Shown here piece by piece: positions 8,359-41,828 of a DNA stretch of 64,000 nucleotides. Every line of letters starts with the position of its first letter. Position 1 is the first letter of the stretch. Origin of the DNA: an uncultured Thermodesulfobacteriota bacterium (lineage in GTDB: Bacteria; Desulfobacterota; WTBG01; CAIYCZ01; CAIRTM01); assembly GCA_964387595.1 (NCBI GenBank), contig CAYLYF010000002.1, positions 7,403 through 71,402 on the forward strand, given 5' to 3'. Both the position numbers and the translations under genes were made by a program. The notes below the pieces were generated by a model, which worked only from the letters and a program-made list of their open reading frames with translations, did not search any database and was not told the origin of the DNA.

Positions 8359-8632
8359 CCACGGCTTTAGAGCAGTTTCTTTTTCACTATAGCCTTAAGA
8401 CAGCTGAACCAACAGTTTAAACAGCTTGAACGGTTTAATCAAATTAAAAATCTCAAATAAAACTGAAAAGCAGTAATGCCAAACCTTTTACATTATTTAC
8501 CCTTTTTGTTCTTTTTCGTTTTGGCATTCATTGGGCATTTGAACTTTGGTCTTTGGCTTTTAGATTGCACCGTACCTACCGTTATGCCTAAACGTTATGG
8601 CTACAATATTTAAGAAAATGCTCTAGCCGTGG
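8359..8632 (+). mobile_element. MITE-like element family R2, copy 1 (~274 bp) with terminal inverted repeats CCACGGCTTTAGAGCAGTTT ... AAAATGCTCTAGCCGTGG
   Basis: A second, ~80% similar copy lies in inverted orientation at 17065-17326. The ends form ~12-18 bp TIRs. The element is non-coding. Confidence 0.55.
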
Positions 8633-8677
8633 ATAATTACAAAAAATGAAATCTGAAAGGTGTAGAATAGATATGAA

Positions 8678-8708
8678 TCACTCACTTCTAACTTCTCACT
8701 TCTCACTT
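8678..8708. repeat. Tandem heptamer array, (GTGARRA)x4 read on the minus strand (TCACTCACTTCTAACTTCTCACTTCTCACTT on plus)
   Basis: The array is read directly. It sits immediately 3' of the trkA stop codon, and the same motif recurs at 14545, 16168 and 17338. Confidence 0.5.
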
Positions 8709-10144: not shown

Positions 10145-10327
10145 TTAAAGACTATTTTTATCATATTTTTCATTTAGAATATCAAGCTCTTTTTCTATAT
10201 CAAGATCAGAATTGTTTTCAGCTTTCATCATAATCTGCATAATCTCAAGCTGAGGTATATGAGAGGTTGTTTTTATCAGAGCTTCGATTCTTTTAATTAT
10301 TGGACTGTCGAAGGTTTTTGGTCTCAT
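10145..10327 (-). CDS. Hypothetical small protein (60 aa)
   Basis: The ORF comes from the track only and no recognisable domain was found. Its position just upstream of trkA is compatible with a leader or small protein. Confidence 0.25.
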   Translation of the reverse strand: MRPKTFDSPIIKRIEALIKTTSHIPQLEIMQIMMKAENNSDLDIEKELDILNEKYDKNSL

Positions 10328-10678
10328 TGTTAACCTGTGTAATCTATAGTTTATAGTGGAATTAAAAGTGATAATTACAGGAAAGGTTTTTTGTGATCTT
10401 AGTCAAACAGTGTGAGTACATTATTTGCTTCGTTTGATATGTGTTCATTTATTCTTGCAAGCAGTTTGTGTTTACTGTCTTTTATATATCATTAGGGTTA
10501 AGATATCTACTCTTTATCTTTGATCTCTAACCTGTTTATTCAAATTATTGTTAACTTCAAACTTTATAAACAGAGGATTATTTATGGAGGGTCAATCCTT
10601 AAGTATTCACGTTTAAAGTAAGCAAGGTTGTTTGCTTTATGGAAAATATAGAAAAAATTATAAAAATTATTTTTATGT

Positions 10679-11070
10679 TTCGTCAATAAAATCTGTGGGT
10701 AACTTTTTAGTATTAACTAGAGAATACAAAATTAAAACAGTGGGTTGTCAATATAAACACCCCGTTTTTTTTTAGCGTTAACTTTTATTAAAGAACCTTA
10801 TTCAAAAGATGAACGTCAAATATAAAACCTTGAACGTCCAACATTGAACATCGAACTTCCAACGTCGAATGAAAACCTAGCACCTAAAATCAACCAATTT
10901 TGTTTGTTTTGTTGTTTTTTTCCATTCACCATTCGATGTTGAACGTTCGATGTTCGATGTTCATTTGTTTTTACGTCCACTGTTCATCTATTTTCAACCC
11001 GTCCGTTTGTGCCGTTAAAAGGATCTGTAGTGTAAATTGTTTTTTTACCCGCAGATTCTGTTGAAGAACC
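10679..11070 (+). mobile_element. MITE-like element family R1, copy A (~392 bp) with ~20-24 bp TIRs (TTCGTCAATAAAATCTGTGGGTAA ... TTACCCGCAGATTCTGTTGAAGAA)
   Basis: A near-identical copy lies at 16411-16807 in the same orientation. The element contains a long internal imperfect palindrome rich in GAACRT/CGATGTTC hexamers flanking a T-rich loop. It is non-coding. Confidence 0.6.
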
Positions 11071-11177
11071 ATTTTACAAGTATCTAATGTGCTGTGCTTT
11101 GTAGGATGCAGGCACATTATAACCTGTAGAGCCGGTAATTACCGGTCTATCGTCTGCTGCTGCTGAAAAGTATTTTG

Positions 11178-16167: not shown

Positions 16168-16202
16168 GTGAAAGGTGAAAGGTGAGAAGTGAAGAGTGAG
16201 AA
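16168..16202. repeat. Tandem heptamer array (GTGAAAG GTGAAAG GTGAGAA GTGAAGA GTGAGAA) on the plus strand, 12 bp upstream of the oppA-like start
   Basis: Five tandem 7-mers are read directly. This is the longest copy of the motif family. Confidence 0.5.
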
Positions 16203-16410
16203 GACAAATATAATTAAATTTCATTTCGTTATTTCTACAGTTTTTTATTCTTTAAATAGTTTCTTAAACCCATAATCAGTGAGCGGACTTCGTTAATATT
16301 TTTGATGATATTTCCTGTCGTACAAAATTTCAAACGTTCAGATATGATTAGTTGAGTTTCCAGTTCAGAAAGTGACCCTAATGATATGTTTAAAAAGTAT
16401 AGAAATTCGC

Positions 16411-16807
16411 TTCGTCAATAAAATCTGAGGATAACTTTTCAGCACTTATTATAGAATACAAAGTTAAAACAGTTGGTTATCAATATAAACACCCTGTTTT
16501 TTTAGCGTTAACTTTTATTAAAGAACCAAATTCAAAAGATGAACGTCCAACATTGAACATCGAACTTCCAACGTCGAATGAAAACCAACCACCTAAAATC
16601 AACAGATTTTTTTTGTTTGTTTTGTTGTTTTTTTTCATTCATCATTCGATGTTGAACGTTCGATGTTCGATGTTCATTTGTTTTGACGTCCAATGCCCGT
16701 CCTGAGCCTAATCGAAGGGTTCATCTATTTTGCAACCAGTCCGCTTGTGTCTTGCAAAAGATCATTAATAAAGATTACTTTTTTACCCACAGATTTTGTT
16801 GAAGACC
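16411..16807 (+). mobile_element. MITE-like element family R1, copy B (~397 bp), flanked by a 9-bp direct repeat TAGAAATTC
   Basis: The copy is ~85-90% identical to copy A and has TIRs GCTTCGTCAATAAAATCTG ... CAGATTTTGTTGAAGACC. A putative target-site duplication TAGAAATTC lies immediately on both sides. Confidence 0.6.
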
Positions 16808-17064
16808 TAGAAATTCTTTATCCGATCTCCTTCCAGCACCTTCGCTAATATTGCTTGTAATAGATATAGCAGACCTTCATATCTGCGAAGTTAACCCATA
16901 TTCTTCTTCTTTTGGGAATGATGCTGTTAATTTATATAGTTTCTACCAGAGATACAGATTGCTTCCAAACATCCATTTCCTTGTGATTCATACATTTATG
17001 TCTAATAGTCTATACTATTAGAATATCAGAATCTTCACTGATTACCCATCCATTGCAATAATGG

Positions 17065-17326
17065 ATTAGAGCATTTTTATAACGTGTAGCCATATGTTTT
17101 AAGTGACGGCTGGTGAAGTTCAATCTAATGTCAAAAGCCAAAGTTCAAATGACAAATGAATGCCAAAAAAGAAAAAGCACAAAAAGGATAAATGAGTTTG
17201 GCATTGGTGTTTTTCAGTTTCATTTGACATTTTTAATTTGAACTTAAAATTTCATGTTTATCCGTTAAAACCGTTCAAACGGCAGTCCAACTATCCGAGG
17301 CTATAGTAAAACAGAAACTGCCCTAG
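17065..17326 (-). mobile_element. MITE-like element family R2, copy 2 (~262 bp), inverted relative to copy 1
   Basis: The reverse complement aligns along its length with 8359-8632, with TIRs CTAGGGCAGTTT ... AAAATGCTCTAATCC. Confidence 0.55.
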
Positions 17327-17337
17327 CTCCTTATCCG

Positions 17338-17362
17338 TCACTCTTCACTTCTCACTTTTCAC
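17338..17362. repeat. Tandem heptamer array (GTGAAAA GTGAGAA GTGAAGA GTGA on minus strand) immediately 3' of the AMMECR1 stop
   Basis: Read directly. Same family as at 8678, 14545 and 16168. Confidence 0.5.
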
Positions 17363-17367
17363 TACTT

Positions 17368-41753: not shown

Positions 41754-41828
41754 TGGTAGGCGCGGGCGGTATCGAACCGCCGACTTCTACCACGTCAAGG
41801 TAGCGCTCTCCCACTGAGCTACGCGCCT
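41754..41828 (-). tRNA. tRNA-Val (anticodon GAC), CCA encoded
   Basis: The reverse complement folds by hand into a cloverleaf: acceptor AGGCGCG/CGCGCCT, D-arm GCTC-AGTGGGA-GAGC, anticodon arm CTACC-TTGACGT-GGTAG, T-arm GGCGG-TTCGATA-CCGCC, then A-CCA. Confidence 0.85.

Follow-up and report, generated by a model that had tools for sequence, protein, structure and literature searches.

What kind of unit is a non-coding repeat of about 400 bp found twice within a single block of housekeeping genes, and how did it come to occupy its two sites? The question is raised by a sequence, here termed R1, located in a 64-kb stretch of the genome of an uncultured Thermodesulfobacteriota bacterium (contig CAYLYF010000002.1, positions 7,403 to 71,402; this whole stretch is referred to as the window). 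Our answer, to which we assign a probability of roughly 90%, is that R1 is a MITE, a miniature transposable element bounded by inverted repeats, of the ISL3 family. It would be mobilised in trans by an ISL3 DDE transposase which recognises its 26-bp ends and makes an 8-bp staggered cut, and its internal hairpin and pseudogene would be carried along as a passenger.

The two copies, A and B, were detected by a repeat search and compared by gapped alignment. They lie 5.7 kb apart in the same orientation. With boundaries set by family comparison, copy A spans 10677-11070 (394 bp) and copy B 16409-16808 (400 bp, or 399 bp if the final T is assigned to the flank). The alignment contains 329 matches, 42 mismatches and 52 gap columns, that is 88.7% identity over aligned pairs, which bears out an initial annotation of the window describing two copies of ~395 bp in the same orientation, ~85-90% identical. 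Gaps are accounted for by one insertion unique to each copy (21 nt in A, 24 nt in B) and by small homopolymer differences. The insertion in A had been described as a 21-bp internal duplication; it is found in no other family member aligned, and only its last 8 nt repeat the preceding sequence, so that the description does not hold. Absence of a coding frame in either copy, also annotated, was found again: no credible open reading frame (ORF) exists in A or B, where the only ORFs are of at most 54 aa and of low complexity, and neither copy holds a four-helix-bundle ORF (TIGR02436 / PF05635). An ISL3 transposase query gave no tblastn match in the 64-kb window. Both copies are located in intergenic spacers of the chromosome, between protein-coding genes of a minus-strand housekeeping block with the order tkt, trkH, trkA, A, plsX, oppC, oppB, oppA, B, AMMECR1, ftsY. 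The relevant features, including terminal inverted repeats (TIRs) and target-site duplications (TSDs), are the following.

10677-11070, plus strand: copy A of the putative MITE (short form of 394 bp); the spacer that holds it lies downstream of plsX and upstream of orf60/trkA.
10677-10702, plus strand: left TIR of A, GTTTCGTCAATAAAATCTGTGGGTAA; its core is identical at 21/21 positions to the right inverted repeat of the ISL3 element of contig L145.
11045-11070, minus strand: right TIR of A, GGTTCTTCAACAGAATCTGCGGGTAA in the minus-strand reading, with the TIR pattern; the plus strand reads acc cgc aga ttc tgt tga.
10840-10961, no strand: central hairpin of A, with 32-nt arms (10840-10871 and 10930-10961), 88% complementary, and a 58-nt loop.
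10818-10838, plus strand: insertion of 21 nt found in A only; the TGAACGTC that precedes it recurs at its end.
10669-10676, no strand: left flank of A, ATTTTTAT, in which only 5/8 positions agree with ATTTTACA, the right flank at 11071-11078.
16409-16808, plus strand: copy B of the putative MITE, short form, 399-400 bp, within the AMMECR1-oppA spacer, where it interrupts a decayed four-helix-bundle gene.
16409-16434, plus strand: left TIR of B, GCTTCGTCAATAAAATCTGAGGATAA, with the TIR pattern.
16783-16808, minus strand: right TIR of B; the plus strand reads ...acc cac aga ttt tgt tga aga cc(t), corresponding to THRFC*.
16549-16674, no strand: central hairpin of B, with 33-nt arms (16549-16581 and 16642-16674), 88% complementary, and 60 nt between them.
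16695-16718, plus strand: 24-nt insertion private to B, defined by alignment of the family copies.
16401-16408, no strand: left copy of the TSD of B, AGAAATTC; the 9-bp version, TAGAAATTC, is at 16400-16408.
16809-16816, no strand: right copy of the TSD of B, AGAAATTC; the 9-bp version is at 16808-16816.
16235-16991, minus strand: target gene of B, a decayed four-helix-bundle gene (TIGR02436) split by the element at ...RRSDKEFL|YFLNISLGS..., with one frameshift and one in-frame stop.

Two intergenic copies, the only ones in the window, in the same orientation and 5.7 kb apart, could also be produced by segmental or tandem-dispersed duplication of a chromosomal spacer, without transposition; a duplication including the flanks had been raised in the initial annotation. 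However, when 60 nt on each side of A and B are compared, only 19-20/60 positions match, and the flanks are therefore unrelated rather than shared. In addition, the boundaries of the copies coincide exactly with inverted repeats, B interrupts a gene and is accompanied by a target duplication, and at least 10 further sites carry 8-bp duplications of their own. Flank comparison, together with the reading-frame reconstruction reported below, refutes a duplication origin, which we consider practically void of probability.

The TIRs of the R1 family are 26 bp long; those annotated at first, of ~20 bp, are real but were drawn too short. Complete copies have the termini GGTTCTTCAAC.../GCTTCGTCAAC..., and the inverted repeats of an ISL3 partner would match GGTTCTTCAACAGAATCTGTGGGTAA. 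The two TIRs match each other at 21/26 positions in copy A and perfectly, at 26/26, in two copies from metagenome contigs (L024 and L033). A degenerate pattern built from four ends, TCNTCAAYARAATCTGNGGRTAA, was found with up to 3 mismatches only at those four sites in the 64 kb, where 0.03 matches are expected by chance.

Further copies were sought in metagenomes with a 24-nt hairpin-arm sequence, GATGTTGAACGTTCGATGTTCGAT, as seed, and at least 119 contigs (L020-L138) were found to contain it. BLAST and TIR searches on these contigs revealed relatives of R1 bounded by TIRs, among which at least 10 left flanks and at least 12 right flanks are distinct, so that the additional copies anticipated in the initial annotation do exist, at 10 or more other sites. 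Two of the flank sites are found on another contig from the same sample as the window (Ga0222665), and related samples, of the Ga0222xxx series, also yielded contigs with the element. Many metagenome contigs break inside R1. Exact 8-bp TSDs were identified in L024 (GATAATTA), L103 (AAACAATC), L059 (ATATTTTC) and L029 (AAAATATT), and in every TIR-bounded copy they abut the TIRs directly and not the hairpin. At copy B, the flanking repeat is made up of AGAAATTC and one more matching T. Because one A of the family consensus, GAAGAACC, is missing from the right terminus of B, a duplication of 8 bp and one of 9 bp are indistinguishable at this site. The 9-bp direct repeat first annotated is indeed present on both sides of B, its right copy at 16808-16816 as given, its left copy at 16400-16408 and not 16402-16410, and identity between the flanks stops at 9 bp; the TSD of the family is 8 bp, and that of B is either 8 bp plus a chance match or cannot be told from it. 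The TSD of A is decayed.

The TIR pattern was then scanned over 185,579 representative genomes, giving 17 isolated single matches. Only one of them, L008, has a long ORF ending in the pattern; the others have none, and several resemble DnaA-box-like TTATCCACA sites. The ORF of L008 is intact, codes for 430 aa and contains the Pfam domain DDE_Tnp_ISL3 (E=7.9e-71), plus ISL3 helix-turn-helix and zinc-ribbon domains. Its end, ...PVTHRFC*, is encoded by gtt acc cac aga ttc tgt tga aga ggc, and the TIR pattern constitutes the last 23 nt of the ORF, identical at 23/23 positions to the TIR core of R1. Right ends of the R1 copies read acc cac/cgc aga ttY tgt tga aga (a)cc: by their match to the end of the L008 ORF they are recognised as ISL3 right inverted repeats, which retain the last transposase codons and the stop. 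The right TIR of A, read on the plus strand, is a relic of the C-terminus and stop codon of an ISL3 transposase.

The same arrangement, in which the TIR sequence encodes the transposase C-terminus (...THRFC*/THRFY*), was found in ISL3 elements on other contigs, and provides the insertion sequence (IS) family with matching ends that was looked for: besides L008, it includes L145, a relic in L029 and L144. L145 carries an ISL3 element of ~1.4 kb, with a transposase split into 341 + 74 aa and both inverted repeats of the R1 type; the left one is TGCTCTTCAATAAAATCTGTGGGTAG, and the reverse complement of the right one, GCCTCGTCAATAAAATCTGTGGGTTA, is identical at 21/21 positions to the left TIR core of A. 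In L029, 4.6 kb away from a copy of R1, lies a 65-aa relic of an ISL3 C-terminus (...LPEPKLTHSFY*) ending in GGATTCGTCAATAAAAGCTGTGGGTTA. In a Paraburkholderia plasmid (L144, NZ_CP022993), an annotated ISL3 transposase ends with ...PTTHTFY* within GGTTCGTCAGTAAAAAGTGTGGGTT. Identification of a specific parent IS through subterminal homology was attempted and rejected, the similarity to every retrieved ISL3 element ending at the inverted repeat.

A protein search with the L029 relic returned only 'transposase' ORFs of 51-112 aa (P0121-P0202). Two of these were inspected: P0127 lies within the split gene of L145 (341 + 74 aa) and P0139 within an internally deleted gene in L146/L147 (128 + 81 aa). 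The idea that such ORFs define a new type of short-ORF element was rejected, both being pieces of ISL3 genes; the result suggests widespread decay of this ISL3 clade in metagenomes from sediment and water. ISL3-type TIRs of the same kind also enclose different interiors, e.g. GGATCATCGACAAAATCTGTGGGTAAACATATAGATATC... and GGCTCCTCTACAAAATCTATGGATAAAAAAC..., in L057 (5140-5219), L128 (895-975), L103 (3925-3950), L024 (10874-11137) and L059 (1004-1040) / L108 (155-190). A sequence common to three Crocosphaera MAGs (metagenome-assembled genomes L009, L014 and L016), TTACCCGCAGATTTTATTGATGAAGCGATCGC, has no long ORF adjacent to it, and possibly marks where a cyanobacterial ISL3-type MITE or relic ends.

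Some of these observations weigh against assigning R1 to the ISL3 family as a MITE. Beyond the 21-26 bp of inverted repeat, R1 shares no sequence with any retrieved ISL3 element; since the similarity stops there, a family is identified but no specific parent. Neither the window nor any contig shown to belong to the same organism yielded an intact ISL3 transposase, and the ISL3 partners are a gene from a Chlorobiales MAG (L008), a split gene on a contig of another or unknown organism (L145) and a relic (L029). The TIR-pattern scan of the 185,579 representative genomes did not find a full copy of R1, and copy B had no blastn match among 72,556 plasmids. The TSD of B reads 9 bp, although indistinguishable from 8 bp, and the flanking 8-mers of A, given in the feature list, match only in part. 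That the other copies come from the same species is presumed from the common sample (Ga0222665) and a shared second repeat family, R2. Finally, flank combinations are shared among L033, L057, L066 and L102 in recombinant- or chimeric-looking ways, which suggests recombination between copies or assembly chimeras.

The polarity of the insertion could be established at both sites in the window by reconstructing the empty target; a check of empty sites in related strains had been proposed in the initial annotation. On the minus strand, the sequence on either side of B is a four-helix-bundle gene. Excision of 16409-16808 together with one AGAAATTC yields ...SEGAGRRSDKEFLYFLNISLGSLSELETQLIIS..., and the reconstructed empty site reads ...GATAAAGAATTTCTATACTTTTTAAAC.... 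The restored frame matches the TIGR02436 profile over positions 1-109 of 109 (E=1.9e-35), and its alignment to PDB 2gsc is gapless across the junction. The frameshift and in-frame stop of this gene indicate that it was decaying anyway. An empty site of B at the nucleotide level was looked for in a relative (L139) and abandoned, the spacer being too diverged to align; the reading-frame reconstruction was used instead.

At site A, relatives with a PlsX 84-85% identical to that of the window keep the oppABC-plsX synteny; named PlsX relatives are Thermodesulfobacteriota or 'Proteobacteria', at ~60% identity. Once A is removed, the spacer of the window (reconstructed empty site ...CTTGTAAAATAATTTTTATAAT...) and the plsX-pilZ spacer of L140/L142 are collinear through the junction. 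In the relatives, the genes pilZ-mshE-parA-HDOD-orf82, for a total of ~6 kb, are located between plsX and trkA (L140, 2469-8434). From the window a pilZ-mshE-parA-HDOD block of ~5.5 kb is missing at this position; only the pilZ upstream region, a 27-aa C-terminal remnant of the HDOD gene (10402-10482) and a homologue of orf82 (10148-10303) are kept. That A could be the junction of a ~5.5-kb MITE-mediated deletion, from pilZ to HDOD, which would explain its poor TSD, was considered and rejected, because both flanks of A correspond to the same plsX-downstream spacer in the relatives. The loss, located to the left of the A flank (~10483-10638), is a separate event and does not coincide with the boundary of A.

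The core of R1 was compared by alignment of nine copies, which share a common frame: left TIR and ~100 nt, an arm (AAAAGATGAACGTCCAACATCGAAC...), a variable middle, the complementary arm (...GTTCGATGTTCGATGTTCATCT), then ~60 nt and the right TIR; the ~100 nt and ~60 nt are unique subterminal sequence. Most family members are ~690 bp long, and in them the hairpin encloses a frameshifted four-helix-bundle gene: the middle, of ~400 nt, encodes the protein on the opposite strand, with three frameshifts and one in-frame stop. After frame correction, the gene matches TIGR02436 (E=1.6e-24) and PF05635, the 23S rRNA intervening sequence (IVS) protein family (E=1.4e-13). In the short form, represented by A, B and L029, the loop is only 55-60 nt long and retains the upstream edge of the gene (TTTTCCATTCAYCATTCG) and its lysine-rich 3' edge. 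These three copies have the same deletion and share a 23-nt insertion after the right arm; they occupy different sites, and L029 has its own TSD. Derived features shared at different sites indicate a single origin of the short form, by internal deletion, followed by transposition, the direction of change being presumably from long to short. Shrinkage of the gene in situ was detected at an orthologous locus outside the MITE, where L027, with an intact gene, can be compared to L042/L104/L105 (flanks 91-98% identical).

R1 could also be regarded primarily as a gene for a structured non-coding RNA or as a cis-regulatory RNA, the complementarity of its termini forming a closing helix. Whole-element folds are far more stable than those of shuffled sequences (z = -7.4 and -5.6), the central hairpin of A has z-scores of -4.3 as RNA and -3.4 as DNA and is nearly invariant between A and B, and its frame of an A-tract and a T-tract recalls a bidirectional terminator. 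However, TIRs and hairpin fully account for the stability of the fold, and the large hairpin is not picked up by a simple scan for terminators. At the gathering score, the Rfam 15 covariance models identify no family for R1 in the window or in 15 related loci, the sole match in the window being a tRNA at 41757-41828; no rRNA match was found in the window or in the same 15 loci. Moreover, elsewhere the terminal sequence encodes the end of ISL3 transposases, and TSDs and gene disruption denote insertion at the DNA level. We regard an RNA function as the primary nature of R1 as very improbable.

The hairpin is also found outside the MITE. Of the seed-matching contigs, which number at least 119, most have the arms without ISL3 ends; the GC content was 0.41-0.51 in 14 examples inspected. 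Among the matches listed, the loop is shorter than 150 nt in 31 modules with both arms and 150-540 nt long in 27, and intact four-helix-bundle genes lie inside the arms in L022, L027, L038, L072 and L095. TIR-less hairpins mostly have ~50-nt loops which retain the start and the end of the four-helix-bundle ORF, and L079 contains tandem arm repeats.

These data could mean that it is the hairpin / four-helix-bundle cassette which is truly mobile, and that the ISL3-like ends are incidental remnants of an IS that such a cassette once entered, around copies no longer mobilisable as a unit. Arms without TIRs, sometimes around intact genes, are consistent with this, as is the fact that L139 lacks the other cassette, which in the window fills the AMMECR1-oppA spacer. 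Against it, the duplication adjoins the TIRs and not the hairpin in every TIR-bounded copy, and the whole unit from TIR to TIR, including the ~100 nt and ~60 nt of non-hairpin sequence, is 79-100% conserved over at least 10 sites. From both observations it follows that the unit that moved extends from TIR to TIR, and the cassette as the real mobile unit seems to us very unlikely.

The gene hit by B is bracketed by inverted arms different from those of R1, 25 nt long and 96% complementary (16175-16199 / 17338-17362). The cassette so defined, 16175-17362, fills the entire 1161-nt AMMECR1-oppA spacer and has been hit by both R1 copy B and a copy of R2. In L139, 77% identical in nucleotide sequence in the flanking genes, the same spacer is only 78 nt long. 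The low-complexity arm motif of GTGARAG type recurs a third time in the window at 8677-8707 (ATCACTCACTTCTAACTTCTCACTTCTCACT), where it adjoins the trkA stop codon; this copy resembles the arm at 17333-17363.

A more general, and tentative, proposal is that hairpin-bracketed cassettes of the four-helix-bundle (23S-rRNA-IVS-protein) family form a widespread selfish or mobile module, with rRNA intervening sequences as its best-known landing site, one cassette captured in the ISL3 MITE and another filling the AMMECR1-oppA spacer. We consider this possible, but rather doubtful. Cassettes of this kind may be characterised by long low-complexity inverted arms, an A-tract/T-tract frame, a gene in the loop and frequent gene loss in situ, which leaves 'empty' hairpins; the AMMECR1-oppA cassette may then be one that is absent from a relative and has itself been the target of two MITEs. 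A literature search found no paper on hairpin-bracketed four-helix-bundle cassettes.

Taken as an ISL3-family MITE, R1 would have the following history. An ISL3 DDE transposase encoded elsewhere would bind the 26-bp TIRs and move the element, which would be joined to a staggered 8-bp cut in AT-rich target DNA, generating the flanking duplication. In the putative ancestral form, of ~690 bp, a long imperfect hairpin brackets the frameshifted four-helix-bundle gene. The ~395-bp form would have lost the body of the gene by internal deletion, its 5' and 3' edges being kept as a 58-nt loop, and would have transposed again to give A, B and L029. Copy A landed downstream of plsX, and copy B inside another four-helix-bundle gene, already decaying.

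Effects on the neighbouring genes can only be inferred from motifs. The A-tract/stem/T-tract architecture could serve in termination or in processing of plsX read-through. The left TIR contains an outward TTGACG, -35-like, and the flank a TATAAT 18 nt off, which together make an 11/12 sigma-70-like site directed toward trkA; a TTGACG...TATAAT hybrid promoter at the left end of A is only a suggestion. In promoter and terminator scans, counts were no higher than in shuffled sequences.

Among the closest known systems is an ISL3-derived MITE of Microcystis aeruginosa, 187 nt long, with the inverted terminal repeat GGCTCTTCG and 8-nt repeats, 8 bp being the target duplication of the ISL3 family (PMC11448079). 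Both elements are non-coding, have imperfect TIRs matching ISL3 ends (GGCTCTTCG there, GGTTCTTCA/GCTTCGTCA in R1), 8-nt direct target duplications and stem-loop potential, and would be mobilised in trans. R1 is, in contrast, two- to fourfold longer, belongs to a different host lineage, shows no similarity beyond the first bases of the inverted repeat, and alone carries a hairpin-bracketed four-helix-bundle pseudogene or its remnant. The 'novel' element of the initial annotation is consequently a further member of a class already known, and its sole unusual feature is the passenger cassette. Its interpretation as a MITE is supported, with the correction that the ~395-bp form derives by deletion from one of ~690 bp which carries a pseudogene. 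ISL3 is not mentioned in a 2024 review of prokaryotic MITEs.

With ISL3 insertion sequences (DDE_Tnp_ISL3; the IS204/IS1001/IS1096/IS1165 group; L008, L145 and NZ_CP022993) R1 has in common the TIR sequence, the ...THRF(C/Y) and stop codons inside the right inverted repeat, the 8-bp duplication and GG-initial termini. It differs from them in having no transposase gene, nothing shared internally and a size of 0.39-0.77 kb versus 1.2-1.5 kb. Intervening sequences of 23S rRNA can carry an S23p / four-helix-bundle ORF (PF05635), in Leptospira and others. As in these, the long form of R1 has a PF05635/TIGR02436 ORF in the loop of a long stem; unlike them, R1 does not lie in an rRNA gene, its ORF is frameshifted (long form) or absent (A and B), and it has ISL3 inverted repeats and TSDs. 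Mosaic non-autonomous elements with passengers include the Tn3-derived TIMEs (PMC4133298) and transporter IS. They resemble R1 in that IS or transposon ends surround unrelated passenger DNA moved in trans, as is presumed for R1. They belong to a transposase family other than that of R1, whose passenger, a small hairpin cassette or pseudogene, has no selectable function that is evident.

R1 documents recent ISL3-type transposition in an uncultured, repeat-rich lineage, and accounts for assembly breaks in the metagenome contigs of this lineage. Near plsX, trkA and oppA it has disrupted one gene and split one spacer. It is the second well-anatomised case of an ISL3-derived MITE, and its wider implication is modest, i.e. 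that such a MITE can carry and spread a hairpin-bracketed four-helix-bundle cassette. Should the cassettes prove to be mobile or RNA-processing modules, the R1 loci provide matched filled, empty and decayed states for their study.

The second repeat family, R2, is ~260 bp long and is present in the window at 8365-8627 and 17067-17325, in mutually inverted orientation, and in L024 at 228-493. Its ends are TIR-like (GGCTTTAGAGCAGTTTC... / ...GAAAATGCTCTAGCC), and it has a central low-complexity hairpin of its own. The copy at 17067-17325 is 95% identical to a segment of L024, which also holds a copy of R1. R2 is probably another MITE.

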